Of a stretch of DNA of 64,000 nt, positions 1 to 61,436 are shown piece after piece. The notes beneath the pieces were generated by a model that saw only the letters and a program-made list of their open reading frames with translations, ran no database searches and had not been told where the DNA came from. Source of the DNA: Thalassomonas sp. RHCl1 (lineage in GTDB: Bacteria; Pseudomonadota; Gammaproteobacteria; Enterobacterales; Alteromonadaceae). Numbering within the stretch: position 1 is the stretch's first letter; each line of letters begins with the position of its first letter. The DNA lies in the NCBI RefSeq assembly GCF_947387555.1, contig NZ_CANDNZ010000006.1:91482-155481 (forward strand). Direction: 5' to 3'. The position numbers and the translations under genes are program-made.

Positions 1-34
1 TTCTTTTAAATCAAAGAAAGGTATAAGTGTTTAT

Positions 35-1291
35 TTGCCGCAATTAGAGTTGGGCAGAGCCTTGTTCTTTCATGATGCTTACTTGGCTCGAACTGCTTTG
101 GAACCCGATGCGCTGGGTATTGAGTTTGATATTGTTTCTGATGATATATCTGATACAACGACAGTAAATGTATTGCAATCGTCAGGTTACACCCAAAAAT
201 CGTTTGATAATTATGCTGCCAGGAGGGTGTTAAGCTGGATATTGATTGATCCTGATGCACGTAGATCTTATGAATCCATAGGTCGTTATCAAAAGCTGTA
301 TGGAAAAGAAATGAACGGTTACCGGCATTGGGACTTTCAATTTGAACCGCCCCAATTGTCTAATGCTAAATTTGTGCTCAGGGGAAAATTTGATAGGGAA
401 AGTAATAGTGTGTTCGTCTATGAGATTACTACCATTTCTAATATCACCCATAAGGTACCCAGAAAAGTTGAGTTTTATAGCCCTAAATTTAGGGAATATG
501 TTCGTGGGGAAGGTTCTGGCGGTAGTGGCCCTATAAATGAGCGGCCCGAAGAACATAATGTCCAGGATGGTGAAGATGCCAACTCAAATACTGACCACAC
601 ACAATTGTATGCGCCAGTGGTGGGTGTTGAGTTTGATAATCCCTTTGCTACAACCAAGATCTACAAGAAGAAACAAAAAGGCTCAAGTGGCCGTAAAGAT
701 GATGAAGCAAATGAAGCAGGCAAGGACGTAAGTACAGAAGAGGGAGATACTGGCGGTAATCGTCCGCAAGCTGATTGGGATATTGCCGAAGATAACTCGG
801 ATGACGCGCACCTGTATGCAAATAAATTTAGCTGCTTTCAACGCATGTTAGAATTACTTGAATCGGAGTGTGGTTGTAAAATTACCTCCAATCAAATTAA
901 AAAGTTACCAAAAGTAGGACGATCTGGCAGACATATCCTAAAAACAGACGGTTCTCCCCGCTGTTTGTCTGTTGTAACAGTTATTTGTAACGATAGACAG
1001 TATCATATGCTTGAAGTTGATACCTCTGATGACAGCAAATCATTGTCTACTAAATTGTTAGTTGTAAATAAGCCGGCTAAATGGAGTGAACAGCTAATTG
1101 AATTAGAGCAAAAATTGATGAAAAGCTCTCTCAGCTGGCCTACTGAATTTTTAAATCTCATTTGTGGTGATAAGGGACATAAGAGCATTTCACACCCCCA
1201 AACTCCATCTGAAAACAAAGGATTACTGGATCCTGACTCTGTCAATAAGTGGGCGCAAAGGGTTAAAAGTTGGATGTTGGGAGCACAGTAA
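35..1291 (+). CDS. Hypothetical protein, 418 aa as drawn, with an acidic low-complexity middle (GSGGSGP..., D/E-rich). It may be 5'-partial because the frame stays open to the window edge.
   Basis: Long ORF in the AT-rich island. Start as drawn is TTG at 35 and no in-frame stop lies upstream to position 2, so the true start may be outside the window. I recognise no catalytic motif. Confidence 0.45.
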   Translation: MPQLELGRALFFHDAYLARTALEPDALGIEFDIVSDDISDTTTVNVLQSSGYTQKSFDNYAARRVLSWILIDPDARRSYESIGRYQKLYGKEMNGYRHWDFQFEPPQLSNAKFVLRGKFDRESNSVFVYEITTISNITHKVPRKVEFYSPKFREYVRGEGSGGSGPINERPEEHNVQDGEDANSNTDHTQLYAPVVGVEFDNPFATTKIYKKKQKGSSGRKDDEANEAGKDVSTEEGDTGGNRPQADWDIAEDNSDDAHLYANKFSCFQRMLELLESECGCKITSNQIKKLPKVGRSGRHILKTDGSPRCLSVVTVICNDRQYHMLEVDTSDDSKSLSTKLLVVNKPAKWSEQLIELEQKLMKSSLSWPTEFLNLICGDKGHKSISHPQTPSENKGLLDPDSVNKWAQRVKSWMLGAQ

Positions 1292-1395
1292 ATAATAGTA
1301 ATATATTGCTATTAAATTAGCTTCAGAACAGTAAAAATAGAGTATTTCTTATAAGATAGGGTTAAATAGCACAGAAGGATGTTAACTGAGCGTGT

Positions 1396-1851
1396 TTGCA
1401 TGTAGAATTACCCGCTAAACTCGGTGCGTTAATTTATGGAATATGGTTGTTTATGGAATTTTTAGACGCGATTTTTGTGCTAGCTTTTGGCACTGAAGGG
1501 GAATATAAGGGTAAACCTGAGTACGCAATTCTAGTTTTTTCAATAACATCCTCATTTTTCGGTACGCTAGTTGTCATCCTGGACGCTTTGGTCGTTAAAA
1601 CTTTAAATAAAAATAGTTTCTTGAAATTATCCTATCCTGGCTGGAAGGGGCTTTTAGTTTTTCTTTTATGGGGGGTTGGTGCTGGTATTGGGGGATTTTT
1701 AGGCGCAGCTATTGGTATTTTCGAGATTAATAGAATAGCTTGTGTTGTGGTTGGAACATCATGGCCATTGGTGCTTCCGCGCTTATTATCAACAGCAAAT
1801 AGTGAGTTATCCACTGAAAAAATAGATTTAGGAGTAAATACAAATGGGTAA
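1396..1851 (+). CDS. Small integral membrane protein with about 4 predicted TM helices
   Basis: The translation is dominated by hydrophobic stretches (LGALIYGIWLFMEFLDAIFVLAF..., LLVFLLWGVGAGIGGFLGAAIGIF). It overlaps the next ORF by 8 nt, so the two are likely co-transcribed. Confidence 0.45.
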   Translation: MHVELPAKLGALIYGIWLFMEFLDAIFVLAFGTEGEYKGKPEYAILVFSITSSFFGTLVVILDALVVKTLNKNSFLKLSYPGWKGLLVFLLWGVGAGIGGFLGAAIGIFEINRIACVVVGTSWPLVLPRLLSTANSELSTEKIDLGVNTNG

Positions 1852-2278
1852 TTTAAACTTTTTACTTGGTCGCTCCGATTTTAAAGCTGCGTCAGACATT
1901 ATTGAATCTGTGAGTACATTTCCTCAATTCAATGAGAGAAATGAAAATTTGGCTTTGGCCAGTTCTTTGCTTGTATTTAAAAGTCAATCGCAACAGTGTT
2001 GGTTAATTTTTACTTCTCAAAGAATATATTTTGTTGTGGATGATAATGAAGTCTCTGAAACTAAGACTTTATGGGCCAGAGATCGTGAAAAAATTGTGAA
2101 AAATGGTCGTATAGATCTTGATATGAAGATAATTTCTCAATCAAAAGAAAGTAGTAAATTGTTATTTGGTAAAATGAACAAAGGTTTTTTATTTACTAAC
2201 TCACTATTTAAAGATCAGACAATCACGGGTCTTATATTGAAATTAGTTTCAAACCATTTTTTATCTGTAGAAAATTAA
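1844..2278 (+). CDS. Hypothetical soluble protein, 144 aa
   Basis: ORF overlapping the upstream membrane-protein ORF by 8 nt, same strand, 132 bp upstream of the methyltransferase gene. Confidence 0.4.
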   Translation: MGNLNFLLGRSDFKAASDIIESVSTFPQFNERNENLALASSLLVFKSQSQQCWLIFTSQRIYFVVDDNEVSETKTLWARDREKIVKNGRIDLDMKIISQSKESSKLLFGKMNKGFLFTNSLFKDQTITGLILKLVSNHFLSVEN

Positions 2279-2409
2279 TCTTATTTATAAGTTAATGTTA
2301 TCGATACAAGTATTTTTAGGCTTATTGTTTATCGATAACAGAAAGAACTTGAGTTTACTACTATTCATCGATATAAGTTTGTTGTATATATTTAATTTAA
2401 AATGATTTT

Positions 2410-4047
2410 ATGAGTCCTCATTGCGCAATAAAAAAACGGGAGCTTGGTGCATATTATACTCCTCCTGAGTTAACAAAGGTTCTTGTTGATTGGGCTATAC
2501 GCTCATCAAGAGAAACTGTTCTCGAACCTAGCTTCGGTGGTTGCGGTTTTTTAGAAAGTTGTAAAAGCAGGTTGGAGAAATTAGGGACCAAAAGGCCTTT
2601 CACTAAATTATTTGGAGTAGATATCGATGATAAAGCTTTCGATTATTTACATGATATATTTGGACCTATCGTTGTAACTAAACGATTTATAAAAAAAGAT
2701 TTTATTGGTGTTAATGGTAAAGAATTTTCAGTCAAAAAATTTGATGTACTTTTAGGGAATCCTCCATATGTATCACTTCATAATATGACTCCTGAACAGC
2801 GAGAAAGGTGTTTTAAAGTACTTCATTCTTCACCTTTCGCTGATAAAACTATTGGGCGTAATGCAAGTCTTTGGGGGTTTTTCTTGCTTCATAGCTTGAG
2901 CTTTATTCGAGATAATGGACGGATGATATGGGTTTTACCAAGTAGTCTCTTACATACACATTATGCTAAAGCTTTAATTGAAATATATAAGAAGCATTTT
3001 TCTAATATTAAGCTAATTAAGCTAAATCAACGTTTTTTCAAAACTGAAGGTACCGAAGAAGTTTCTGTAATACTAGCCGCGGAAGGCTTTTCTCAAGAAA
3101 TAATTGATCATAACTTAACAGGCCTTTACGTCGCTAAAAGTGTTAATGAATTGAGTGTTATTCTTAACAATAAAGAAATTTTAGAAAAAGACCAGATAGC
3201 TAATCATAAATTAAATTTAGTTAATGAAGATGTTTTAGCGACGTCTGAGTTATTAAAACAAAATTCTGTTAATTTAGGTGATATTAGTAAAATTGTTATT
3301 GGTATGGTGACTGGTGCGAATGACAAGTTTGTTATTAAACCTTCAACATCAAGCAATCTTGGTTTATCTGCTCAAGATATAAGGCCCGTTATTTCTAAAT
3401 TTAAACATCTTTCAGGGATTATTCATGATAAAAGGAGTCATGAAAAACTCATCTCTGAGGATGAAAGATGTCTTTTGGTGTGTCCTTCTGATATACAAGA
3501 AAAACATACATCTGTTCGAAATTATCTAGCTACAATTGACCGGGTAAATAGAAAAACTAACAGAACATTCCCTAAACGAAAATTTTGGTTTTACCCTGAT
3601 GATGAGCAGATACCAGATGCGTTTCTTTCCTATATGATTGATTCAGGTCCTCGTTTAGTTATTAATTCAGCGAAAATAAACTGCACTAATACAATACATC
3701 GTGTGTTTTTTAATGGTGGTATTAGCTTTAGAAAAAAGAAAGCATTAGCTATTTCAATGTTATCAAGTTACACACGTTTTTCTGCTGAAATAGTCGGCCG
3801 TTCATATGGTTCGGGGGTTTTAAAGTTAGAGCCTTCAGCAGCAAAACAGTTAAGCATAATATACAACAATGAGCTATTAGAGCCTTTGTTATCTATTTCA
3901 AAAGAAGTTAATGATTTACTTTCTCGGGGCCTGATTACAAATGCAACGACTATCGTTGATGAATTATTAACAGAGCACTTTGCTATTGATTTTAAAAAGT
4001 TTAGTGATGCAGTTATTGTTTTAAGAAAAGATAGATATGAAAGTTAA
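2410..4047 (+). CDS. N6-adenine-specific DNA methyltransferase, gamma class (TaqI/Eco57I-like)
   Basis: Motif X GAYYTPPELTKVLVDW near the N-terminus. Motif I (AdoMet-binding) LEPSFGGCGFLE. Motif IV LLGNPPYVS (NPPY = amino-methyltransferase catalytic motif). The order X-I-IV defines the gamma class. ATG at 2410. Confidence 0.85.
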   Translation: MSPHCAIKKRELGAYYTPPELTKVLVDWAIRSSRETVLEPSFGGCGFLESCKSRLEKLGTKRPFTKLFGVDIDDKAFDYLHDIFGPIVVTKRFIKKDFIGVNGKEFSVKKFDVLLGNPPYVSLHNMTPEQRERCFKVLHSSPFADKTIGRNASLWGFFLLHSLSFIRDNGRMIWVLPSSLLHTHYAKALIEIYKKHFSNIKLIKLNQRFFKTEGTEEVSVILAAEGFSQEIIDHNLTGLYVAKSVNELSVILNNKEILEKDQIANHKLNLVNEDVLATSELLKQNSVNLGDISKIVIGMVTGANDKFVIKPSTSSNLGLSAQDIRPVISKFKHLSGIIHDKRSHEKLISEDERCLLVCPSDIQEKHTSVRNYLATIDRVNRKTNRTFPKRKFWFYPDDEQIPDAFLSYMIDSGPRLVINSAKINCTNTIHRVFFNGGISFRKKKALAISMLSSYTRFSAEIVGRSYGSGVLKLEPSAAKQLSIIYNNELLEPLLSISKEVNDLLSRGLITNATTIVDELLTEHFAIDFKKFSDAVIVLRKDRYES

Positions 4048-4081
4048 GCTTTAAAATTAATGTAGATCATCAGGAAGATAT

Positions 4082-6463
4082 ATGCTGGATAAGATAATAA
4101 AGGAAAAACTTAATTTTTCAGTCGATGGGCGTTTGATCTCAGAATTAGGTGAAAAGTTAGTTACAAAAAATTACCTGGCTTTAGGTGAATTAATTAAAAA
4201 TTCATATGACGCAGACTCGGAAAATGTAGAAATTAAATTTAACAATGTTCGAGAAGGGAACGGTACAATTGTTGTAAAAGATCTTGGTACGGGGATGTTG
4301 TGGGAAGAAGTCCGAGATTGTTGGATGAGGGTATCAACATCTAATAAAGAAACAAGTCCCGTATCTTTGATATATGGTAGAAAAAAAAGCGGCAGCAAAG
4401 GTATTGGTCGGTTCGCTTGTCAAAAATTAGCCGCGGCGGTGAATCTTAAAACCGTTGCTATTACAGATGATCCGAATATTGCGCAAGTCACTACTCTTGA
4501 TATTGAGTGGGAGGATTTTAAATTAGGTAAAGATTTAATTGAGATTAAATGTAAATCGGAATACTACTTTACCGAGAAGTCAAATGTAACAATAGGCACA
4601 ACGATAACTCTTATCAATTTAAAGCAAAAATGGAACCAAATTAGTTACAACAGTTTGCAAAGACAATTGGCATCTCTTTCAATCTCATCGCCTGTTCGAC
4701 GAGAAGACTTTGAAGAAGATCCTGGTTTTGAAATTTTAGTAAGTGCAGATGAATTTGAAAGTGGTAACTATAAACTGTCGGAAAAAGTTCTAGATGCTAG
4801 TTGGGGGCGCGTCAAAGGTAGTGTCGCTGAAGATGGTACTGTAAAATTATTTTTTGATGGAAAGCTAATAGGAAAGAAAGAACATACTTTACATGAACAA
4901 TTTCCTATTTTAAAACATGCTGAATTTGATGTAAGTTGCCTACCGCATGTGAAAGCATATCAGAGAAACCCTCAATTAATGAATTCTAAGCAAATGAAAA
5001 TAATTGAGGACACACACCCCGGTATAAAAGTATATAGTGAAGGTTTTAGAGTTTACCCGTATGGGCAGGAAGGGGATGATTGGTTAGGGTTAGACCGCGA
5101 TGTAGGTCGTCGTAAAGCCAAAATAGACAATAATGAATTAGGGAAAATAGCATCAAGTTATGGGTTAGATAAAAGTAGGGTTATTCTTGATTTATTTAGG
5201 AATGCTAACATTGTTGGAGCTGTATACATAGATACTAACATCAACCCTGCCTTTGAAATTAAACTCAATAGGGAAGGTTTCGTTGAAAATGAAGCTTCTT
5301 TGATGCTGTCTAAACTTTTGCGTTATATTGTTGAATGGATGACGGTCCAATATTCATATTTTAAAGTGCTTTTTAGTGAGCATGAATTAGAGCAGCTAAG
5401 AAAAGATTTTGATGACAAATTGGGTAGTAACAATTCGGAGGTTGCTGAAAATAAAATCATTTATGATGAAGAACCAGGAGGTGTAATACCAAAACCTCCG
5501 CTTTCTATTGATAATAAAAAAGAGCAATTTGATAAAGCGATGACGCTCTTATTGAATGAAGCAAAATTCAATAGAGAAACTAGTAATAAGTCTTATTTAG
5601 AAGATATTGCACCTGAAAGAGCTAGTGATCAGTCAGTTGCAACAAATAAAGATTCAGAATTACTTGAAGTCGCAAGTAAAATAATAACAACAGAATTTAA
5701 TGCAAATAAAAATGAGTTAACCTTGTTACGCGCCATTGCGTCATCAGGGCCTTTATTTTTTGTTTTTGCACATGAATTTAAAAGTTTAGTTTCAAATCTG
5801 GATACAGATGCAGGGAATATAGAGCAATGGATCTCTAAAAATAGTAAAAACGATACTCGTTGGCTTTCAGAAATAGCCAAATCAATGAGACTTACTCGTC
5901 AACGGTTCTTGTCACTAGAAAATTTAATTGGTGTGTTTGCATCAACGCATAAAATCAAAACTAAGAGAATCAAAGTTGCGCAAGCGATTGAAAAGGTGTG
6001 TGCTGGATTTGAATTTGTTACAAGCAGCAGTAATATTAAAATTGATACTAAAGGTATCGATGCATTATTAAAAACTCAAGAAATTTCAGATGCTGCGTTT
6101 TATTCAATAGTGGTTAATCTTGTATCAAATGCGATAAAAGTTGTTTTAGCGAAAGGGACACGAGAGATTAGAATTACAGCTTTTCGAAAAAATAATCTTG
6201 TTATGAGGGTTGAGGACAAGGGGATAGGGCTACCTGAAGATAAATGGGATGATGTGTTTTTACCACTAGTAACTGATCCAACAGGTGAAATGTATAATGA
6301 GCTATTTGATAAAGTAGGCACGGATGAATTATCAGTTCTTGGACGAGGTACAGGTTTAGGATTGAACATTGTTAAAGGAATGGTACAAGATAATGGAGGA
6401 AGGGTGAAGTTTATAAAGCCTTCTGATGGGTGGAAAACTTGTGTGGAAGTTATACTCCCCTAG
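4082..6463 (+). CDS. Atypical sensor histidine kinase. The N-terminal domain is a GHKL/Bergerat-fold ATPase (MORC/Hsp90/MutL-like). It is followed by an H-box and a C-terminal canonical histidine-kinase HATPase_c.
   Basis: N-terminus: N-box ELIKNSYDA, G1 DLGTGM, G2-like SKGIGRFA. Middle: H-box-like FVFAHEFKSLVSNL. C-terminus: N-box NLVSNAIKV, G1 EDKGIGLPE, G2 GRGTGLGLNIVKGMVQDNGGRV. AGGAAG RBS before ATG at 4082. The stop lies 13 nt before the next gene. Confidence 0.75.
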   Translation: MLDKIIKEKLNFSVDGRLISELGEKLVTKNYLALGELIKNSYDADSENVEIKFNNVREGNGTIVVKDLGTGMLWEEVRDCWMRVSTSNKETSPVSLIYGRKKSGSKGIGRFACQKLAAAVNLKTVAITDDPNIAQVTTLDIEWEDFKLGKDLIEIKCKSEYYFTEKSNVTIGTTITLINLKQKWNQISYNSLQRQLASLSISSPVRREDFEEDPGFEILVSADEFESGNYKLSEKVLDASWGRVKGSVAEDGTVKLFFDGKLIGKKEHTLHEQFPILKHAEFDVSCLPHVKAYQRNPQLMNSKQMKIIEDTHPGIKVYSEGFRVYPYGQEGDDWLGLDRDVGRRKAKIDNNELGKIASSYGLDKSRVILDLFRNANIVGAVYIDTNINPAFEIKLNREGFVENEASLMLSKLLRYIVEWMTVQYSYFKVLFSEHELEQLRKDFDDKLGSNNSEVAENKIIYDEEPGGVIPKPPLSIDNKKEQFDKAMTLLLNEAKFNRETSNKSYLEDIAPERASDQSVATNKDSELLEVASKIITTEFNANKNELTLLRAIASSGPLFFVFAHEFKSLVSNLDTDAGNIEQWISKNSKNDTRWLSEIAKSMRLTRQRFLSLENLIGVFASTHKIKTKRIKVAQAIEKVCAGFEFVTSSSNIKIDTKGIDALLKTQEISDAAFYSIVVNLVSNAIKVVLAKGTREIRITAFRKNNLVMRVEDKGIGLPEDKWDDVFLPLVTDPTGEMYNELFDKVGTDELSVLGRGTGLGLNIVKGMVQDNGGRVKFIKPSDGWKTCVEVILP

Positions 6464-6475
6464 CGTGGAAATAAT

Positions 6476-7528
6476 ATGAATAAGAAATTTAATATTTTGT
6501 TTGTTGACGATGAAGTCAACGGAAATAGAAAAGGTTTAATCGCTAACATTAATTATGATGAGCGTTTTAATGTTACAGAATATCATCCTGTAGACGCAAT
6601 TGAAGATCTTGATAAAGGACTTATTGAAGATAAGTATGCATTAATTATTGTTGACTATAAGTTGAGCCATGAACCAAATAGAAACAATGTATCATGTCAC
6701 TCAAATGGATATTCATTAACTAGCTTGTTTAAAGAAAAACTTCCCAATACCCCTGTGTATTTAATCAGTCAAATTCTAACAGATGATATCTCCATGGGTG
6801 AACATTACGATAAAATGTTTTCTCATAGTTTCCTTACTTCAGAAAAAGGAAGAGATTTATTGGCCTATGACTGTGAAGATCATCAACAACTTTTAAAAGA
6901 AGCTCGAAATTTAAATTCTTTTGAAAAAATATGTGAATTTTTGATGGTACCTAATGAATGTAAAGATGCCTTTAAAGTGGCTTTACCAATTGAGTTTAGA
7001 AAAGGTCTATCAAACAACTTAGATAATAATTCTTCACAAGTCTTAGATAAGGAACGCAGTTTTATAAGGTTTGCTAAATGGATAAATCAAATATTCTTAC
7101 TTAAAAGCGGACCTTTAATTGATGAGTTGGAGGTTGCTGTTTTATTTGGCCTTGATTATGAATATTTTAAAACAAACTTTCGTAAAGAATATGAAAGCGA
7201 TTTAATGGCATGTGAATATAAGGGGATTTTTGCGAAAACGAATGAAAAAAAATGGTGGAGCCAAGCTGTTTTCGATTTTGCGGTTTCTTTAGCTGATGAG
7301 GATTATATTTCATATCCTTGGAAAGTTGTTCCTAAAAAGCTAAATGTTGAAGAAAAATTTTTATCAAAATGTGCTTTATGTCAAGAAAACACCCCTGAGT
7401 GTACGGCATTTGATAGAGATGAAACCGAAGGAAATACGAAATATGCAGCTCATTGGAGCTGCACCGTTGCTGCAGAAGATCAGGTCGATCTAGCTGGGTT
7501 TAATCCTGTTTTATATTTGGATGATTAG
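6476..7528 (+). CDS. Response-regulator receiver (REC) domain protein with a roughly 220-aa C-terminal output domain of unknown function that contains a Cys cluster
   Basis: N-terminus ILFVDDE (acidic pocket) and ALIIVDYKL (putative phospho-acceptor Asp) are typical CheY-like REC motifs. The C-terminus has CALCQENTPEC...HWSC. I recognise no HTH. Confidence 0.7.
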   Translation: MNKKFNILFVDDEVNGNRKGLIANINYDERFNVTEYHPVDAIEDLDKGLIEDKYALIIVDYKLSHEPNRNNVSCHSNGYSLTSLFKEKLPNTPVYLISQILTDDISMGEHYDKMFSHSFLTSEKGRDLLAYDCEDHQQLLKEARNLNSFEKICEFLMVPNECKDAFKVALPIEFRKGLSNNLDNNSSQVLDKERSFIRFAKWINQIFLLKSGPLIDELEVAVLFGLDYEYFKTNFRKEYESDLMACEYKGIFAKTNEKKWWSQAVFDFAVSLADEDYISYPWKVVPKKLNVEEKFLSKCALCQENTPECTAFDRDETEGNTKYAAHWSCTVAAEDQVDLAGFNPVLYLDD

Positions 7529-7536
7529 GAGTTATT

Positions 7537-8280
7537 TTGGCAAAGAAGGATTTTTTTTACGAAGCCTATAAAAAAAATTTATGTAACTTTTTTAAATTTT
7601 TATCAGCGGATACACGTGTTAGTCAAGCTCTTGTAAAAACTCTTAGTGAAATAAAAACTAATCAGCAAGTTCTCCAGGCCGCAACTAAAAGCAAAAAAGT
7701 GAAGGTGGACTTACCAAGCTTTGAAATACCGTTATTAAACTCGGTAAAATGTGGAGTAGATACAGATTCTTTTTTATCTATAGGCGGTAAAATCGAATTT
7801 AATGAGCAAGGTATTGTAAATCAAAGTATATCTGCTTGCCTTATTATAAGGCCCCATGAGGATACAAAAGTTTGTGAAAAGAATGCTACAGGCGTAATGA
7901 AAGCTGGAAATAAGTATATAATAAGGCGTTTTCATTTTGATATAGATTCAAGTCAAACTAGTAAGGATCGGCCAATATCACATGTTCAATATGGTGGAAA
8001 TATTCAAGATGAACAAAAAGGAAGCTCGGAATACCAATTAATCAATTCTATTGATCTGCCTCGAATTCCCTCATTCCCACTAGATGTAGTACAGGTTATC
8101 AACTTTTTAATGGATCAATTCGATACAACTTTGAAACAACAATTCAAATTACCTAGCTGGAGGGGAATAGTTGTGGATAATGATGCAATTTGGAAGAAAT
8201 ATTTTTTTGAAAAAATGATTTCAAAAACAAGTAAGCGTAAGACAATGTATGAATGGGCCTGTGATCCGATTAGCTTTTAA
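7537..8280 (+). CDS. Hypothetical protein, 247 aa, last gene of the methyltransferase / histidine kinase / REC cluster
   Basis: TTG start 6 nt after an AGGAG RBS and 9 nt after the REC gene stop. No recognisable motif. Confidence 0.45.
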   Translation: MAKKDFFYEAYKKNLCNFFKFLSADTRVSQALVKTLSEIKTNQQVLQAATKSKKVKVDLPSFEIPLLNSVKCGVDTDSFLSIGGKIEFNEQGIVNQSISACLIIRPHEDTKVCEKNATGVMKAGNKYIIRRFHFDIDSSQTSKDRPISHVQYGGNIQDEQKGSSEYQLINSIDLPRIPSFPLDVVQVINFLMDQFDTTLKQQFKLPSWRGIVVDNDAIWKKYFFEKMISKTSKRKTMYEWACDPISF

Positions 8281-8527
8281 TAAAGAACTTTATTGTTTTA
8301 ATTTAGATGATTAATTTGAGGATTATTTACATAGTAAAGTTTTACTTTTTTGTGGATATTACAGTAACTAAACGAACAAAAACAAAAGTTGTAATTTATT
8401 TAATTAATAGGGTTTGAAGCGGTCAACTGATTTTGATCACTAGATTTTAAGAATTATACAAAATATGGTTGTTTTTTAATGGAAGTCTATGGCTTTGTTA
8501 GATAATAACCGTTTTGAGTCCTTGGAG

Positions 8528-9151
8528 CTATTGAAACCGCTTACACAGCTCTTCCCAGTTTGGTTGCGCTGTTTTTAAATCTGTCGGCTCGAAGCGATCC
8601 CTATATGGTGAGATTGCAGGTTGCATCCAACAGAGTTGTCTATCTGCCTCATGCTTATCTTCCTTTGTCATAAGCTCTCTGCTCTCAAGATATGTGTACA
8701 AGGCACGAAGGTAGAATGAGTAGAGGTCGTTTAAGTAGGGAGTGCATCCAACACTCGTGTTTTCAGCTCCGCACCCTAAGTTAATCAGATAAGCAGATGA
8801 TTCTCTTACGCTCCGCGTGCCCATCGCTATCTGGTTCAGTGAGATGCGACCTAGATTTTTGTTCGCGAGGTCTACAGCCGTTTGCGCCGCGAAGACCGCT
8901 GCGTTAGCTCTAGTTACCGCTGTTTCGGCTTTTCTTCGTTCCACAGTCGATTCTGAGGCTTGATACAGTGCGATAAGAGCAGCAGCGATTGCAACTATCA
9001 GCCCTAAAATCGCTGGCATACCCGTTGCTGTTATAACGCCAAACCATGATTGGTGGTGGCCACAATGGAGGCATATAACCGCGTCCTTCGGAATTGGACC
9101 TACATGGCACCAGCGACAACGCCGGTCGAGAGCGTTCACGTTTTCTTTCAT
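8528..9151 (-). CDS. Zn-ribbon plus single-TM membrane protein (CxxC...CxxC N-terminus)
   Basis: N-terminal RRCRWCHVGPIPKDAVICLHCGH (four Cys / His zinc ribbon), then the hydrophobic helix MPAILGLIVAIAAALIALY. It is convergent with the upstream cluster. Confidence 0.45.
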   Translation of the reverse strand: MKENVNALDRRCRWCHVGPIPKDAVICLHCGHHQSWFGVITATGMPAILGLIVAIAAALIALYQASESTVERRKAETAVTRANAAVFAAQTAVDLANKNLGRISLNQIAMGTRSVRESSAYLINLGCGAENTSVGCTPYLNDLYSFYLRALYTYLESRELMTKEDKHEADRQLCWMQPAISPYRDRFEPTDLKTAQPNWEELCKRFQ

Positions 9152-9388
9152 AGTGTCTATCGAGCTATAAATTTTTTGATATTTGGGATTAGGTAAAACA
9201 ACTCAAATAATTGCAAATTATTAATCTATAGTCTACTTAGCTTTGTTGAATGAATATGGTGGTATCGTTTAAGTTTAATCAAATAATAAATAAAACCTAA
9301 ATTAATATTGAGATTGAGGGAGCATAGTCTTCTATCATTACTTAAACCAATTTGAAAAATAGCCTAAAAACTAGAGAGGTTCCTCACC

Positions 9389-10684
9389 ATGGCTATATCA
9401 AAACTGTTTATTAGAGTTTTATTGTTTTTTATTTTCTGCGGAATAGCACATGCAACCGTGTGCCGTTTGCCTGGCTTAAATGGTTTTAATGAATCACAAA
9501 TTCGCGGTGAAAAATTTATTAGGTCTACGACATCAAATTTAAAAGACGTAAGTCTATACATTGAGTTGACTGAAAATGGGCCATGGTACCACTCAAATTA
9601 CATTACACCAGGATTTGAACACCCTACTAAGATTGGTAGAGAAGATATTTATGATGCACAACGTGCGTACAATAACATTGCCATAACACAGGAAATACTT
9701 GATAAAGATTCAAGTATAATAGGCCGTTTGGAAAAAGCCTATGAAGAAAACTCTACCATTTATGTTGACCAAAGCGTATTAAATTCAGATGGTACTTCTA
9801 AGATTGATTTTGGAAGAGCCAAGAATCTAATCGCGGTTGATGGTAAAACTGGAAAGCAGTTGAGTGAAATAGTAAAGATTGATCGCACTCTAGGCAGGAA
9901 AACATTGCTAACCGGTCGAGCACTTGGGTGTTGTTTTTTTGTTTTTCCTCCTCATTTTTTAAAGACATTAGTTGCTCAATTAAGGTCTAAATTATTTAAT
10001 TCTAAAAATGTTAATATCGTAAGTTTGGTAAAAGATTCTGCTACTGCTAGGGCATTTAAAGAGAGTAAATTTCTGTCTAAAAATGTTAAGCAACCTGACG
10101 GATTAGAAACTAAAGTCGCTCTGAGAAATCAAATCAAGGATAGCCGTGGAAAAACGCTTATTGTAGTTGGGCATGTTGAAGGCAAAAAGTTTGTCACTAG
10201 GGATGAAGCAGGGAACATGGTCTTTGATTATGATGTTGCTGACTTACATACTTTAGCAAAAAAGAACAACGTGCAACTGATCGCGCTTGGATGTGAAACA
10301 GCAAAAAATGTTGATTTGGCTACAACTGGTAGTGGTGTAGTGAAAAAATTTAACACTGTAGATGCTGTATCTAATTTAGAGGCAGCTTTTTCATCTTCGA
10401 AAAACTATGCAGAGTTTTTCGAAAACCTTACTAGTCCTGATCTAATGTTTGTTGCTGGTGAAACGTTTTTATCAAAGTCTCCAGAAGCTATTGCCAAAGT
10501 TTCCATTTTTTCTAGAATTAAAGGTTCTGTAAGTAAAAGAATACAAGTGGGGGCTGCTTATCTTCTTGGGAGGGGGAGCAAAATAAATTTCTCGAAGCCG
10601 ACTAAAATGGTAGCAGGACAAGAGCTAACCGAAAGTGAACGTCTCAAAATAATATTGGAAAAACTTACTGGTGAGACAAGGTAA
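9389..10684 (+). CDS. Secreted protein with a signal peptide and a possible CHAT/caspase-like His-Cys dyad
   Basis: Signal peptide MAISKLFIRVLLFFIFCGIAHA. LIVVGHVEG, and about 45 aa later LIALGCETAK, resembles the CHAT-domain H...LSACET catalytic dyad arrangement. Confidence 0.45.
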   Translation: MAISKLFIRVLLFFIFCGIAHATVCRLPGLNGFNESQIRGEKFIRSTTSNLKDVSLYIELTENGPWYHSNYITPGFEHPTKIGREDIYDAQRAYNNIAITQEILDKDSSIIGRLEKAYEENSTIYVDQSVLNSDGTSKIDFGRAKNLIAVDGKTGKQLSEIVKIDRTLGRKTLLTGRALGCCFFVFPPHFLKTLVAQLRSKLFNSKNVNIVSLVKDSATARAFKESKFLSKNVKQPDGLETKVALRNQIKDSRGKTLIVVGHVEGKKFVTRDEAGNMVFDYDVADLHTLAKKNNVQLIALGCETAKNVDLATTGSGVVKKFNTVDAVSNLEAAFSSSKNYAEFFENLTSPDLMFVAGETFLSKSPEAIAKVSIFSRIKGSVSKRIQVGAAYLLGRGSKINFSKPTKMVAGQELTESERLKIILEKLTGETR

Positions 10685-10687
10685 TTA

Positions 10688-11311
10688 ATGAAAAATTCTC
10701 CTAGTATACTGACCCCTATAAATGAAGCTGTTAATTTTTTAGAACTCATACAACCAGAACATCTTAGCAAGTTCCGAGAAAGCTACCCGGAACTATCTGA
10801 GGAGTTGAAGCCTGGAATAATTGCCGGTTCAGAGGATTATTCTTCTGAGTTTATTAAGGCTAAGGCAAATATTATGCTACATACCCTGGAGAGAGCTATC
10901 AATGCAGTGAAGATAGGTTCTCGCAAGGCTGCACAAAGGATAACTTGGGTTAATCGTATTCGTACTGGGAGCGAAATATTAGTGCTTGTGGGAAGTTCTT
11001 CAGTTCTGGGAACTATTAACCTTGCAAATGAAACACCACACATTTTGGCTGCTGCTATAACATTAATCGCAAGCTGCGGAAGCCTGCTTGCGAAACATAC
11101 ATCAAGAATAACTTCTCCAAAATTAGGTAATATTAATGTCGCATATACTACGCTATCGACTTTAGTCTTTGAAACGAGTGAATTAATAAAGGAATTAAAA
11201 CTTGCTTTGCGCTTTTCACTTCCATTAGAAGATATTTCTGATCTAATATCTCGAGGTAACCAATTGATGGCCCGGGTAAATAAGTGGGACTCTCAAGTAT
11301 TGAAGATCTAG
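10688..11311 (+). CDS. Hypothetical protein, 207 aa (helical)
   Basis: ORF starting 4 nt after the previous stop, so probably translationally coupled to the secreted protein. Confidence 0.4.
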   Translation: MKNSPSILTPINEAVNFLELIQPEHLSKFRESYPELSEELKPGIIAGSEDYSSEFIKAKANIMLHTLERAINAVKIGSRKAAQRITWVNRIRTGSEILVLVGSSSVLGTINLANETPHILAAAITLIASCGSLLAKHTSRITSPKLGNINVAYTTLSTLVFETSELIKELKLALRFSLPLEDISDLISRGNQLMARVNKWDSQVLKI

Positions 11312-11611: not shown

Positions 11612-12805
11612 ATGTTTCTCCGTCTGTCTTTGGCTATAGTTAAACGCTCAACGTTAGTTTTAAAAGGATTTAAAATGACCAGCCCTTCTGTTCAAGAAAA
11701 AGCTATAGAGATTTGCTTTCCGGAAAACAATGCCTTTGCATTGCCGTGCGATCCTAATAACCCTGACGAAATTGCCTGCTTTCGAAAAGATAATCCACAT
11801 ATTAAAAGCACTGTTATTCCTCCAGGTACACCGTATATTCTTCGAAGGGAGTTCGGTGAAAATCCCCAGCCCTGGCAGGAGTTGAGGCCTGATCTCTCTG
11901 ATACCTTTACCCGGCTGAATAATCTGGATGCCGAAACCAGACGTAATATTGCCAATATGAACAAGTCCTTTGGCAGTGAATTATTGGTTGCCTTGTCTGA
12001 ATTCCATCGTGTTGAAATTGCTCCTTTGGTGTTAAGAACTAAAGAATACGCAAAGGATAAGGTATGGAAAACAGTGAATAAGGAGTCTGGCGGTTTGGTT
12101 GGAGCCGGTGTAGGGGCATTGGATAATCGTTTAACCAACTTTAATAAGGCGGTTCTGGAGAGTCAGCGTGCACTGGAAGAAGTACGTAAAGGCTATCAGG
12201 CTAAAATCCCCAAGCTGGAGCTATATAAATTAGAGCAGACCGCTAGAGAGTTGTTGCGTGAAATGAAATATAACTTTCAGGCTGAGCTGACTAAATATAT
12301 GGGCAATGCCAGGGCAAGTGCCAGAGGTACTGTATGGAGCAATCCGGATCGTGCCATAGCTATTGCCAAGAGCGGTCGAACAGCTACTCCTATTCAATTA
12401 TCAAACGCTAAAGAAATGCAAAGGGTTAAGGAATTTGGCATGGTGGGGAAGTTGGCCGGTCCAGGGCTGTTGATACTTGATATTGGAGTTAGAGTTGGCA
12501 ATGTGCATGTAGATCAGATGTCGGGACTAGATTGGCAAAGACGGGCTGTTGTTGAGACTACGGGATTAGGAACTGCCGGCTTTTTGGGAACTGCAGGTGC
12601 ATATGCCGGTGGTGCTGCAGGTACCGCAGCGATTAGTGCTCTTAATGTTGCTTTATTGGCAACACCTGTGGGATGGTGTGTAGTTATCGGTTCGGGCCTG
12701 GCTTTGGGGTATTTGGCTGCTAAAGGAGGTGATACGGCTGGCCAGTGGCTCGCCGGGTTGTTTTATGATGCCAGTGCAAGTATCAAATGGAACCGCTTGT
12801 TTTAA
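11612..12805 (+). CDS. Toxin-like protein with a C-terminal Gly/Ala-rich glycine-zipper membrane domain (putative pore-forming or polymorphic toxin)
   Basis: C-terminus TTGLGTAGFLGTAGAYAGGAAGTAAISALNVALLATPVGWCVVIGSGLALGYLAAKGG has repeated GxxxG/A motifs. A small 2-TM protein gene follows 14 nt later. The gene sits in a duplicated cassette. Confidence 0.55.
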   Translation: MFLRLSLAIVKRSTLVLKGFKMTSPSVQEKAIEICFPENNAFALPCDPNNPDEIACFRKDNPHIKSTVIPPGTPYILRREFGENPQPWQELRPDLSDTFTRLNNLDAETRRNIANMNKSFGSELLVALSEFHRVEIAPLVLRTKEYAKDKVWKTVNKESGGLVGAGVGALDNRLTNFNKAVLESQRALEEVRKGYQAKIPKLELYKLEQTARELLREMKYNFQAELTKYMGNARASARGTVWSNPDRAIAIAKSGRTATPIQLSNAKEMQRVKEFGMVGKLAGPGLLILDIGVRVGNVHVDQMSGLDWQRRAVVETTGLGTAGFLGTAGAYAGGAAGTAAISALNVALLATPVGWCVVIGSGLALGYLAAKGGDTAGQWLAGLFYDASASIKWNRLF

Positions 12806-12819
12806 TTTGAGGCTTTAGC

Positions 12820-13170
12820 ATGATTGAGATTACTACAGAGCTATTGTTTGCCATCATTTTTGCACTATCAATTTTTGTGGCGGGGATTGCTACTTTTTGT
12901 TTTATCCGGATTTCCGGTAAGCATATCGAACGGGAAATGAAGAAGGAAGGAAAGGTACCGCCGGGGTGGGATTCAACTATGGGATTCAGATATGGGCTTT
13001 ATGCCATAACTATTGTTCGTAACTCCATAGGGCCCATGTCATTTGTTGATGATGAAGCTGTGTTGCGCCATGCCCGTAAAAAAGACAGATTTTTAGCGTT
13101 GTTTTTGGTGATTTCTACGATTGTGTTGATGGTTGTAGGTTGCCTGGTTTATTTTTTATATGCGTCCTAG
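12820..13170 (+). CDS. Small 2-TM membrane protein, putative cognate immunity protein
   Basis: 116 aa with hydrophobic N- and C-terminal helices. It lies immediately downstream of the toxin-like gene. An intact paralogue (about 70% identical by eye) sits at 13957-14310. Confidence 0.5.
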   Translation: MIEITTELLFAIIFALSIFVAGIATFCFIRISGKHIEREMKKEGKVPPGWDSTMGFRYGLYAITIVRNSIGPMSFVDDEAVLRHARKKDRFLALFLVISTIVLMVVGCLVYFLYAS

Positions 13171-13383: not shown

Positions 13384-13940
13384 ATGACCAGCCCCTCAGT
13401 TCAAGAAAAAGCGATAGATATCTGCTTTCCGGACAATAATGCCAATGCCTTTGCATTACCGTGTGATCACAATAACCCCGATGAGATTGCCTGTTTTCAC
13501 CGAGATAATCCGCATATCAAAAATACCGTTATTCCACCGGGGACGCCTTATATTTTCCGAACGAGGCTGGCGAGAACCCTCGTCCCTGGCAAGAGCTGAG
13601 GCCTGATCTATCCAGTACCTTTACACAGTTGAATAACCTACCTGCGGAAACCAGGCGCAATATTGCAAATATGAATCAGGCCTTTGGCAGCGAGCTGCTT
13701 GTTGCCTTGTCGGAATTTCATCGTGTTGAAATAGCTCCTTTGGTGTTAAAGGCAAAAGAGTACAGCGAGAATAGGATATTAAAAACACTAAATAAGGAAT
13801 CTGGTGGGTTGGTGTATTGTCATAGGTTCGGCAGTAGCCCTGGGATATTTTTCAGCTAAAGCCGGTGATTCGGCGGGACAATTTTTTGCCGGAATATTTT
13901 ATGATGCTAGTGCAAATATTAATTGGAATCGTTTGTTCTA
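13384..13940 (+). pseudogene. Degraded paralogue of the 11612-12805 toxin-like gene, with a frameshift after about codon 57 and a roughly 180-codon internal deletion
   Basis: N-terminus MTSPSVQEKAIDICFP... matches copy 1 and then shifts frame (ENPRPWQELRPDLSSTF in another frame). KESGGLV is fused directly to GWCIVIGSAVALGYFSAKAGDSAGQFFAGIFYDASANINWNRLF*. The roughly 120-bp upstream leader is also duplicated (13269-13383 matches 11574-11690). Confidence 0.7.
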
Positions 13941-13956
13941 ATTTGAGGTTTTATGA

Positions 13957-14310
13957 ATGATTGAAATCACAACTGAGCTAGGGTTTGCCATTTCTTTTGC
14001 TTTATCACTGTTTGCAATGGCTATTGCTACTTTTTGTTTTATCAGAATATCAGGAAAACACATTGAAAGGGAAATGAAGAAAGAGGGGAAGCTACCCCCT
14101 GGGTGGGATTCAACTATGGGGCTTAGGTACGGATTTTATGCAATAACTATTGTACGTAACTCAATAGCACCCATGTCATTTGTTGATGATGATGCAGTGT
14201 TGCGTTTTACTCGAAAAAAAGATCGTTACCTTGCTTATTTCTTTGTCATTACGTCGGCTATATTTTTGCTGATTATTTTTACTGCTTACTTGTTCTTTGA
14301 TTTAGAGTAG
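13957..14310 (+). CDS. Paralogous small 2-TM immunity-like protein, intact (an orphan immunity gene after the degraded toxin)
   Basis: 117 aa, MIEITTEL...FCFIRISGKHIEREMKKEGK.PPGWDSTMG.RYG.YAITIVRNSI.PMSFVDD.AVLR, nearly colinear with the 12820-13170 protein. Confidence 0.55.
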   Translation: MIEITTELGFAISFALSLFAMAIATFCFIRISGKHIEREMKKEGKLPPGWDSTMGLRYGFYAITIVRNSIAPMSFVDDDAVLRFTRKKDRYLAYFFVITSAIFLLIIFTAYLFFDLE

Positions 14311-14706: not shown

Positions 14707-14991
14707 ATGGCTGAATATCATCATACGTCAGAGCCACGCCCGGCAAAAGCAAAATATCCCACCAGCCGCCAGCTCACGGTGCTGGAAACCGCTTGCCAAA
14801 CAAGTCTTAAGCCCAGGGGCATAGGTGTTAATTATGTGCCGGTCAAGCTGGAGCCTTGTATTGTCCTGAGGGGGAAATGGTTGAAGCAGGCCGGTTTTAC
14901 TATCGGTGAAAAGATCACGGTAACTGCTCTTGGGAGGCAATTAGTGATCCAACCCGCCCAGGTTTTACCTGACTCGGCAGATAAGCGATAA
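14707..14991 (+). CDS. symE: SymE-family type I toxin (AbrB/MazE-fold, SOS-induced endoribonuclease-like)
   Basis: RQLTV...VKLEPCIVLRGKWLKQAGFTIGEKITVTALGRQLVIQPAQ parallels E. coli SymE NRQLTV...[33 protein letters not shown]. A terminator follows. Confidence 0.65.
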   Translation: MAEYHHTSEPRPAKAKYPTSRQLTVLETACQTSLKPRGIGVNYVPVKLEPCIVLRGKWLKQAGFTIGEKITVTALGRQLVIQPAQVLPDSADKR

Positions 14992-58826: not shown

Positions 58827-61436
58827 TTGAGAGAATCCGAGGAAAAAGATGACTTGCGCGCCCTGCGCCAACTTCCAAAACTTAAGTCATTACTAAAGAA
58901 GTACCGGCATGTTAAAAACATCCAGTCCGGGCTATTGCAGCTGTCGGAACTGGCCAGTACCGTTACCGAGATGGAAAGTTTTTACCCGTCTCTGGTTTCC
59001 CTTATCCGCTCTTTATTGGCCAGCGAATATTTCCATATCTGTTTGTCGGATGCCGATAACCGTCTGACCCTGGCGTATGCCCATAGTCCCGAAACCTCTT
59101 CGGCCAAACCTGCCGGGCTTTCACCCGATTGTTTAAGCCAGCGGGTGTTCAACCAGGAGGGCCCTTTACATGTGAATGTCGGGCAAATGGAGCAGCTCAA
59201 AACATCCGGAAAAATCCAGGCGTTTGAGTCGGCCTGTATCGATTGGCTTGGTGTGCCGTTAATGCGCGGCCGGGAAGTGATCGGGGTGATCGCATTGCAA
59301 AGTTATCAGCCCGGCAGCTTTTTCGCCGAGCGGGATAATCAGCTGCTGCAGTTTATTTCCGAGCATCTGGTGACGGCCATCGACCGGATAAATCGCCGGG
59401 AACTGTTGGAACTGAGTATCAAGCGCAGGACCGGCAAGCTAATCCAGACCAATTTAGAACTGCAGCGGGAAATTGCCGAGCGGCAAAAAGCGGTAAAAAT
59501 GCACCAGGCCTTGCTGGCGATGTCGGAAATCACCGCCGGCACCCATGAGATAGATATTTTTTACCAGCTGCTCCATAGTGAAGTGAAAGGGCTGATTAAT
59601 GCCGACAACTTTTATATTGCCTTGCTTTGTGAAGATAAGGTTCGCTTGAACTTTCCCTATTATATCGATGAGTTTAAGGCGGCGCCTAAATCGAGAAAGC
59701 TGGCCGGCGGCTTAACAGAAATGGTGTTGAATAAAGCCTGTCCTGTCCTGATATCATCGGGGCAGCTCCATGCCTTATCGGAGCAAAATAAACAGCAATC
59801 AGAGCCTTTTGCTTATTCGGGGACCCATGGACGCCTGCCTAAATCCTGGCTGGCGGCACCGCTGATGGAGCAGGATAAAATTTTTGGCGTGTTGGCGATC
59901 CAGGATTATCATAACGAAAATGCCTATCAAGAATCGGATATGGAGCTGATCCGCTTTGTCGGACAGCATATCGCTACGGCCATATTACGCAAACGGGATT
60001 TGACCAAAAACCTCGAGCATAAAGCCGAACTGGAGCGCCTGGTGAATGACAGGACGCAGGAGCTGCAGGCGAGCAATCTTAATTTGCGCATGCAAATCGA
60101 AGAAAGGCGTAAAGCGGAAAGCCAGTTATATTACGATGCCCATCATGATGCCTTGACCAAGCTGGCCAACCGGGCGATGTTTTCCGATCGGCTTACCTAT
60201 GCCATACGGCATTTGAAACGCCATCCCGCCTATAAGTTTTCGGTATTATTTATCGATCTTGATCGCTTCAAGTTAATTAATGATACCTTGGGCCATCATA
60301 CCGGTGATTTATTCCTGGTTGAGATAGCCGCCCGGCTAAAAGAGTGTGTCCGGGAAAATGATGTCCTGGCCCGGCTGGGGGGGGATGAATTTGTGGTGTT
60401 GCTGGATGCGATCCAGTCCCAGGACGATGTTGAAGATATCGCAACCCGTATTATTGAACGTATTGCCCAGCCCTTTGAGCTTGACGGGCAAATTCTACAT
60501 TCCAGTGCCAGTATCGGTATTTCCCTTTGCCATCATCACTACCAGGACGCCAATGAAATCCTGCGTGATGCCGATGCCGCCATGTATCAGGCCAAGAGCC
60601 TGGGCCGCGGTCGCTATGTCTTTTTTGACGAAAGTATGCGCGAGCAGTTACTGGCCAGTATGACCCTGGAGCAGGAGCTGAGGGTCGCCATAAACCAGCA
60701 GCAGTTTGAACTGCATTACCAGAAGATTTCTAACCTTGAATGCAGTCAGATCATAGGTTTTGAAGCCCTGTTGCGTTGGCAGCATCCGAAAAAAGGCCTG
60801 CTGACGCCGAGTGAATTCCTGTTTATGGCGGAAGAAACCGGCATGATACTGGAAATTGAAAACTGGGTGATTGAGGAAGTGTCCCGTCAGTTGCTAAGCT
60901 GGCAATATGGCAGTGAATTCGATAATGCTTTTATTGCCGTCAACCTTTCCGGCAGGCACTTAACCCAGGTGAGTCAGCTGTCTAAACTTATTGATAACAT
61001 AAGAAAAAATATAGTACTGCCGCAGCGCTTGATCTTGGAGTTTAACGAATCTGCTTTTGAGCAGCATAATGAACAGGCGCTTAAGGGCTTAAGAAAATTA
61101 AAGGCCCTTGGGGTGAAATTGGCTTTGGATGATTATGGCGCCGGTTTGTCTTCCCTGAACTTTTTATATAGCTACCCGTTTGAGATCATTAAACTCGATC
61201 GCAGTTTTGTCCGTTCATTGAAAAACAATGAAAAGAATTTGTCGGTGATACGGGCTTTGCATGAGTTAGGACAAGACTTTGGTTATCGCCTGGTGGCGGA
61301 AGGCATAGAAAATGAAGATACCCTGCAGAAATTGCATGCCGCCGGCTGTGAATTCGGCCAGGGATATTATCTCAATCGCCCGGTCAAGATCGTCAGGGAT
61401 GACTCGTCTGAAGACGATAACAAACATTACGCCTAA
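58827..61436 (+). CDS. Signalling protein with two GAF domains, a GGDEF diguanylate cyclase and an EAL phosphodiesterase
   Basis: GGDEF active site RLGGDEFVVLL. EAL motif FEALLRWQHP and later DDYGAG / KLDRSF. Two GAF-like segments upstream, separated by coiled linkers. Start ambiguous: TTG at 58827, or ATG at 58971 (MESFYPSL). Confidence 0.85.
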   Translation: MRESEEKDDLRALRQLPKLKSLLKKYRHVKNIQSGLLQLSELASTVTEMESFYPSLVSLIRSLLASEYFHICLSDADNRLTLAYAHSPETSSAKPAGLSPDCLSQRVFNQEGPLHVNVGQMEQLKTSGKIQAFESACIDWLGVPLMRGREVIGVIALQSYQPGSFFAERDNQLLQFISEHLVTAIDRINRRELLELSIKRRTGKLIQTNLELQREIAERQKAVKMHQALLAMSEITAGTHEIDIFYQLLHSEVKGLINADNFYIALLCEDKVRLNFPYYIDEFKAAPKSRKLAGGLTEMVLNKACPVLISSGQLHALSEQNKQQSEPFAYSGTHGRLPKSWLAAPLMEQDKIFGVLAIQDYHNENAYQESDMELIRFVGQHIATAILRKRDLTKNLEHKAELERLVNDRTQELQASNLNLRMQIEERRKAESQLYYDAHHDALTKLANRAMFSDRLTYAIRHLKRHPAYKFSVLFIDLDRFKLINDTLGHHTGDLFLVEIAARLKECVRENDVLARLGGDEFVVLLDAIQSQDDVEDIATRIIERIAQPFELDGQILHSSASIGISLCHHHYQDANEILRDADAAMYQAKSLGRGRYVFFDESMREQLLASMTLEQELRVAINQQQFELHYQKISNLECSQIIGFEALLRWQHPKKGLLTPSEFLFMAEETGMILEIENWVIEEVSRQLLSWQYGSEFDNAFIAVNLSGRHLTQVSQLSKLIDNIRKNIVLPQRLILEFNESAFEQHNEQALKGLRKLKALGVKLALDDYGAGLSSLNFLYSYPFEIIKLDRSFVRSLKNNEKNLSVIRALHELGQDFGYRLVAEGIENEDTLQKLHAAGCEFGQGYYLNRPVKIVRDDSSEDDNKHYA

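Follow-up and report, generated by a model that had tools for sequence, protein, structure and literature searches.

What does a response regulator do when its receiver (REC) domain is joined to an output domain that fits no recognised family? The question is raised by a 350-aa response-regulator-like protein encoded in a 64,000-nucleotide stretch of the Thalassomonas sp. RHCl1 genome (contig NZ_CANDNZ010000006.1, hereafter the window), the C-terminal part of which had been put forward in a first-pass annotation as a candidate toxic effector gated by phosphorylation. Phosphorelays are the main signalling device of bacteria, and we know of few (Detocs, Ambrosia) that run immune decisions. Here we find that the regulator gene lies in a mobile, restriction–modification (R-M)-like defence cassette and supplies the receiver of a kinase/receiver signalling pair, and that the 230-residue tail resembles a binding module of uncharacterised type, with a possible helix-turn-helix (HTH) unit and a zinc finger, rather than a toxin. 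Coordinates of the features are collected in Table 1.

The open reading frame (ORF) listed for the window runs from ATG to stop over exactly 6476..7528 (+), giving 350 aa, and its product matches, at 100% identity, a Thalassomonas sp. RHCl1 protein that NCBI names simply ‘response regulator’. All of the motifs that had drawn attention to it (ILFVDDE, IIVDYKL and CALCQENTPEC...HWSC) are present in this frame. Scans of the protein against Pfam, NCBIfam and PADLOC returned no significant match; apart from a spurious hit to PWWP and a weak one to PDC-M60C (E=0.004) over the REC part, there were none. Searches of PDB sequences gave no match with a profile of the close family, and a match confined to the REC part with a broad profile. 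An AlphaFold2 (AF2) model of the full-length protein is confident (predicted local distance difference test 87, predicted template modelling score 0.86).

The receiver has the (beta-alpha)5 flavodoxin-like fold, with helix 4 unassigned in the model and an invariant segment, 98-116, standing in its place. In an alignment of 65 family members reaching down to ~20% identity, the acidic pair after beta1 and the phospho-acceptor after beta3 are almost without exception (D11 98%, D12 100%, D60 100%), and position 98, a serine that closes beta4 in our protein, is serine or threonine throughout (100%). K113, at the end of beta5, is invariant among close relatives and varies in the wide alignment (R in 20 members, K in 15, other residues in 30). 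The domain is divergent: Pfam Response_reg (PF00072) did not match the protein at E<=10 and is weakly matched by just five of the 65 members. The receiver domain is genuine, with conserved phospho-acceptor chemistry, and the original claim of a phosphorylatable REC domain stands.

The tail, of ~230 residues, is placed compactly against the receiver in the full-length model. Neither profile nor fold searches matched it to any known family of output domains; an output domain of the standard housekeeping kind, which would have spoken against a novel module, was looked for specifically and not found, and the observation that this domain fits no recognised family is thus borne out. What the fold search did return were weak resemblances to small HTH proteins of the excisionase/AlpA/MerR type, to TniQ and to treble-clef zinc fingers. 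The HTH-like matches are partial, and alignment of the tail to a real AlpA protein with hhalign found no similarity. Residues kept across the 65 members are W202, G212, L214, A221, G225 and F231, followed by Y248, G250, F252, W260, W261 and P307, while all four zinc ligands are held by 63 of the 65. E308 (E/D in 89%) and D132 (74%) are moderately conserved, and no catalytic-type set of conserved residues was found in the alignment. Because such a set is lacking, we read the tail as a non-enzymatic binding module.

How widely is this architecture distributed? A word-indexed homology search with the regulator found 11 relatives, and the same kind of search with a profile of the C-terminal domain added no members beyond those known. 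An exhaustive HMMER search with the C-terminal profile against 1.84 billion representatives gave 313 matches at E<=1e-3 and 182 at E<=1e-10, almost all of them 320-380 aa long and likewise carrying the domain C-terminally. The family includes Pectobacterium members. A scan of a genome collection found a single locus, which was already in the sample, and complete Escherichia coli genomes contained no match to either version of the cassette.

Gene neighbourhoods were compared in 12 independent contexts for which DNA was available, with a thirteenth (for P0130) represented by gene calls only. They come from Thalassomonas, Shewanella algae, Aeromonas caviae, Enterobacter, Citrobacter, a Methyloprofundus metagenome-assembled genome, five metagenome branches and a Halomicrobium megaplasmid. 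An orphan protein of ~225-270 aa (protein 4) follows the regulator in 12 of 12 contexts, a kinase of ~750-790 aa precedes it wherever upstream DNA exists, and every contig that is long enough also has a gene for an Eco57I-like N6-adenine methyltransferase, placed upstream, downstream or divergently. In the window the order is methyltransferase, dual-GHKL kinase, regulator and protein 4, separated by gaps of 34, 12 (kinase/regulator) and 8 nt (regulator stop/protein 4); the last two genes overlap in loci L011 and L013. In the Halomicrobium sp. LC1Hm plasmid NZ_CP044130.1 (L016), we observed a 269-aa ORF at 7873-8682 of the locus (plasmid positions 107558-108367) that is missing from the PLSDB gene table. 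It is homologous to protein 4 (E=3e-9) and completes a methyltransferase–kinase–regulator–protein 4 cassette on an archaeal megaplasmid. A 513-aa protein, P0092, was considered as a natural regulator–protein 4 fusion and rejected, since the protein 4 match in L015 spans two reading frames. Positions 5678-9542 of that locus are a degraded copy of the cassette with the kinase split into two ORFs, and because the protein 4 match and the kinase gene are both split, we attribute the apparent fusion to a frameshift or an assembly artefact.

The cassette is mobile. The window copy lies directly downstream of the C-terminal part of tnsE, an order (tnsABCDE, then cassette) that is repeated in S. algae, and it sits in a region of 32-37% GC across ~2-12 kb, compared with ~50% in the rest of the window; it is cargo of a Tn7-like transposon. 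Such transposons also carry the cassette in L001, L004 and L011, the last next to glmS, while L017 is an island with a phage-type integrase and L016 a haloarchaeal plasmid. This variety of carriers gives the cassette a distribution typical of defence cargo. Taken with the methyltransferase linkage and a kinase homologous to AbrB of the anti-phage system Ambrosia (10.1101/2025.09.30.679545), it upholds the defence-type setting that had been suspected for the regulator.

The kinase consists of an N-terminal MORC/HgiDII-type GHKL ATPase (with N40), an H-box reading FAH564EF (codon of the histidine at 5771-5773) and a C-terminal histidine kinase catalytic domain. Its N-terminus matches the NCBIfam model for the N-terminus of BbrUII/HgiDII restriction endonucleases (2e-20), and many NCBIfam histidine kinase models cover residues 551-793. 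The H, N, G1 and G2 boxes can all be read intact, and the enzyme is complete. Protein 4 has 22 homologues, none of which carries any annotation, and it matched nothing in Pfam, NCBIfam, PADLOC or PDB. A profile built from it (A5) detects distant homologues in L013 (7e-51), L014 (3e-14) and the archaeal L016 (3e-9), so that the protein is conserved from Gammaproteobacteria to Halomicrobium. It contains an invariant block, RRFHFDxD...DRPxxHxQYGGN...QK (encoded at ~7924-8019), with polar residues such as enzymes have. An effector role is more likely for this co-inherited 247-aa protein than for the tail of the regulator.

Here we propose that the regulator is a phospho-switch adaptor that licenses the output of the cassette through DNA and protein 4, and is not itself a toxin, a proposal that we hold to be about evenly balanced between right and wrong. 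In this scheme the soluble kinase would use its N-terminal GHKL module to sense infection or foreign DNA and, judging from its motifs, would autophosphorylate H564 in the ‘HEF’ H-box. The phosphate would then pass to D60 of the regulator, a residue with the same number as the Asp60 of AbrC that is needed for Ambrosia defence. Phosphorylation could change how the tail packs on the invariant beta4-beta5 face of the receiver, and the freed or re-oriented tail might engage DNA and protein 4, the latter being the likely catalytic effector. The observed basis for the proposal is the REC fold and its phospho-acceptor chemistry, the intact kinase motifs, the strict linkage of the genes in both Bacteria and Archaea and the tail's non-catalytic pattern of conservation; the direction of signalling, the DNA binding and the partnership with protein 4 are what we infer. 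Our chief reason for the partnership comes from comparison: in two domains of life the tail and protein 4 are inherited together, and the one related system whose regulator lacks the tail, Ambrosia, also has a different fourth gene.

A bolder form of the proposal, which we offer tentatively and consider less probable than the adaptor role as such, is that tail and protein 4 form an undescribed, phosphorylation-licensed effector complex that acts directly on nucleic acid and not via transcription, with protein 4 a new catalytic fold built around HFD...HxQ. Were this ‘phosphorelay-gated restriction system’ real, a restriction-type GHKL sensor would have exchanged its nuclease for a kinase transmitter and handed the decision to cut or not to cut to a separate REC-controlled effector, and phosphorelay-gated restriction would be conserved from Gammaproteobacteria to haloarchaea.

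The rival that survives best, although we doubt it, makes the regulator a pure transcription factor: when phosphorylated it would bind the cassette promoter, possibly at ATCGAT boxes over the -35 and -10 elements, and turn on the methyltransferase and the effector during infection, with protein 4 as one of the regulated genes. This is the model of the Ambrosia authors, whose reporters in place of abrA or abrD were silent until infection and who found that AbrC D60A abolishes defence (10.1101/2025.09.30.679545), and the partial HTH-like matches of the tail are in keeping with it. So are the boxes themselves. In Shewanella, Methyloprofundus and Aeromonas, copies of ATCGAT in a promoter-like arrangement are found exactly at -62 and -39 relative to the ATG of the methyltransferase gene, where they abut a TTGAC -35-like box (ATCGATTGAC) and form the 10-mer ATCGATATAA at a -10-like position. 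The 10-mer occupies this position in five loci, namely the window, L001, L004, L007 and L011 (box coordinates in the last four: L001 5890-5922, L004 5991-6000, L007 2873-2905, L011 4857-4889). In the window the last of three ATCGAT boxes (2367) is part of the 10-mer, which occurs there twice against an expected 0.13; the only other copy, at 59660-59669 (-), is far outside the island. The proteins of the three loci with boxes at -62 and -39 are only ~45-57% identical, and such conservation of the arrangement indicates a function. A scan of 1200-9400 for consensus promoters and terminators did no better than on shuffled sequence and did not call the ATCGAT site.

What that function is can be read in two ways, since ATCGAT may be the operator of the regulator or the methyltransferase's own target site, which would make this a methylation-sensitive promoter. 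The operator reading is weakened because the putative recognition helix of the regulator varies among box-bearing loci while the DNA box is invariant, and because ATCGAT boxes are missing ahead of the methyltransferase gene in the closely related L005 and L009. Beyond the boxes, the C-terminus of AbrC is unrelated to the tail of our regulator, and a pure transcription factor leaves the strict pairing of tail and protein 4 unexplained.

Far less probable is the reading with which the first-pass annotation began, that the C-terminal domain is a new toxic enzymatic effector restrained by the receiver, as in DtcC of Detocs. Fusions of REC to effectors are indeed known in defence (Detocs), the absence of any known domain in the tail leaves formal room for a novel enzyme, and the moderate conservation of E308 and D132 could be cited in its favour. 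We rank it low because the pattern of conservation, across all 65 members, is structural plus a zinc site and not catalytic; moreover the gene directly downstream, to which linkage is strict, encodes a separate protein with invariant motifs of an enzyme-like kind. The analogy itself also fails, in that the cassette has no REC-only buffer gene of the DtcB kind and ten island proteins compared with PADLOC-DB v2.0.0 (2023) returned no Detocs-named model; the closest systems are Ambrosia and the HEF_HK/Response_reg_2 pairs described below. That this is an ordinary housekeeping response regulator lying beside a methyltransferase by chance, as its plain NCBI name would allow, is already contradicted by the conserved mobile context, the cassette recurring in unrelated hosts, where its carriers are Tn7-like transposons, an integrase island and an archaeal plasmid, and by the low-GC island location and the lack of a standard output domain, and can be set aside.

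Table 1. Features of the regulator and its cassette; positions are those of the window.
Feature	Position	Strand	Basis or remark
Target gene, 350-aa response-regulator-like protein (REC + uncharacterised C-terminal module)	6476..7528	+	ORF; AF2 model
Divergent REC domain, residues 1-120	6476..6835	+	Acidic pocket + phospho-acceptor
Acidic pocket D11/D12	6506-6511	+	
Phospho-acceptor D60	6653-6655	+	
Helical part of output module, residues 121-290	6836..7345	+	
Strand-helix-turn-helix-like unit, ~residues 195-246	7058-7213	+	Signature GPL-x5-ELAxxxG
C2HC zinc-finger-like element	7370..7462	+	C299-x2-C302 knuckle, beta-hairpin, H326-x2-C329
Cognate kinase, 793 aa, AbrB homologue	4082..6463	+	Pfam HATPase_c_3 1e-20, HATPase_c 2e-20
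Eco57I-like N6-adenine DNA methyltransferase, 545 aa	2410..4047	+	Pfam N6_Mtase, Eco57I, M_Eco57I_C; PADLOC MTase_II 8e-83
Protein 4, 247 aa, orphan family, candidate effector	7537..8280	+	Always after regulator
Three ATCGAT boxes (2300, 2331, 2367)	2300..2376	+	131-bp spacer upstream of methyltransferase gene
C-terminal part of Tn7-like TnsE gene	35..1291	+	Pfam TnsE_C 2.5e-43
Two small accessory genes: 151-aa hydrophobic, probably membrane protein; 144-aa soluble protein	1396-1851, 1844-2278	+	

Several other genes share the island. The two small genes directly upstream of the cassette, neither product of which matched any family, recur in the same place in L005/L006 (66-68% identity to the L005 pair) and L009/L010 (50-52% to the L009 pair); L017/L018 have a same-sized pair (128 and 139 aa) in this position, and the pair is absent from L001, L004, L007 and L011. 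The pair thus accompanies the cassette in one sub-clade, and it could be either accessory to the cassette or a two-gene system in its own right that is carried along. At the edge of the low-GC island lies an ORF for a SymE-type toxin (14707-14991; Pfam SymE_toxin, 2.7e-12), and the Enterobacter locus, L009, also has a SymE_toxin gene near its cassette. Two genes at 11612-13170, for a protein of 397 aa and a hydrophobic one of 116 aa that both lack a Pfam match, are present in a second copy at 13384-14310, where the large gene is broken (71 and 76 aa) and the small one intact (117 aa). This layout resembles a duplicated toxin/immunity-like pair of which one copy is decaying. The genes at 8528-9151 (-), 9389-10684 and 10688-11311 have no family assignment and may be further transposon cargo; in the product of the first, an N-terminal CxxC...CxxC motif precedes a hydrophobic segment.

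Computational work described systems of this type in 2021, and anti-phage activity of a relative was demonstrated in 2025, while the regulator tail and protein 4 remain uncharacterised. The present variant retains an Ambrosia-type sensor kinase and swaps both downstream parts, and the new tail and protein 4, which match nothing described, are inherited strictly together in at least 12 contexts and two domains of life. The cassette has just four genes and is naturally mobile already. It makes testable what the GHKL/MORC-type module senses during infection, and whether REC output is transcriptional or licenses an effector directly. It also provides a functional context for ~300 clusters of proteins called ‘hypothetical’ or generically ‘response regulator’, and for an orphan family of ~250 aa.

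How, then, does the cassette relate to systems already described? Like classical response regulators (OmpR/PhoB, NarL/LuxR, LytTR, NtrC), our protein joins a REC domain to a C-terminal module that may bind DNA, but the tail matches none of theirs by profile or fold, has double their size and carries a C2HC zinc finger at its end. The likeness to Detocs is that of a defensive phosphorelay whose output is under REC control. Detocs, however, combines a REC-only buffer with a REC-fused enzymatic effector (an ATP nucleosidase) in an architecture free of methyltransferases, whereas the window cassette has a methyltransferase, no buffer gene and a tail that is not enzyme-like; Detocs is thus more distant from the window cassette than are the Ambrosia and HEF_HK systems. 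Among GHKL restriction and defence proteins, the first ~185 residues of the kinase match the model of the BbrUII/HgiDII N-terminus (2e-20), and in VcSduA, of the paraMORC3/VcSduA Shedu group, a GHKL ATPase controls a nuclease; in the window the GHKL module is instead fused to a histidine kinase transmitter, and output runs through a separate REC protein.

Closer still are the response regulator (RR)-like proteins (Response_reg_2, PF19192) described purely computationally by Bellieny-Rabelo et al. (2021; PMC8011034). These lie in R-M-rich neighbourhoods, have no other recognisable domain and are linked in 91.6% of cases to soluble kinases with HATPase_c_3, HEF_HK (PF19191) and HATPase_c. The kinase in the window has the same layout, with HATPase_c_3, an H-E-F H-box and HATPase_c, and it is likewise adjacent to an RR-like gene with a divergent REC domain, with a methyltransferase upstream and a mobile, R-M-rich setting; the regulator family also has a member in Pectobacterium, the genus of the founding gene in that study. 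The study differs in stressing C5-cytosine methylases with Vsr or HNH_2 neighbours, and describes neither the C-terminal domain of the RR nor the fourth gene. Membership of these families is probable, and is not demonstrated at the profile level because neither PF19192 nor PF19191 scored on any tested protein, even at E<=10, or stood among the precomputed Pfam assignments of the loci, the models being perhaps narrow or absent from our copy of the library.

The nearest validated relative is Ambrosia, in which an XRE regulator, an N6 methyltransferase, a HATPase kinase, a REC protein and an HNH nuclease (AbrR/AbrA/AbrB/AbrC/AbrD) are all required for defence in Pseudomonas aeruginosa, infection induces transcription of the cluster, and AbrC D60A and AbrB N40A each abolish defence (10.1101/2025.09.30.679545). 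We compared components using the sequences in Table S1 of that work. Both operons combine genes for an N6-adenine methyltransferase and a soluble dual-GHKL kinase with those for a REC protein and one further, fourth protein; the kinases are homologous (BLASTP 27% over ~400 aa, E=1e-28), and N40 of our kinase and D60 of our regulator carry the numbers of the essential residues mutated in Ambrosia. AbrC has 209 aa, a short helical tail and no Cys cluster, whereas our regulator has 350 aa and shows no significant similarity to it (hhalign probability 0.4%, with an alignment limited to the surroundings of D60). AbrD is a canonical HNH nuclease, whereas protein 4 is an unrelated orphan with no HNH match in Pfam and no similarity to AbrD. 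AbrA and our methyltransferase share the catalytic core alone (22%, E=0.001), and a Pfam scan of window positions 1..8300 found no XRE/HTH_3 protein of the AbrR type. Ambrosia is found mostly in Pseudomonadales, while the variant described here extends to Archaea. The cassette is thus a sister variant of Ambrosia that shares its sensor kinase and logic and differs from it in the output of the regulator and in the fourth component.
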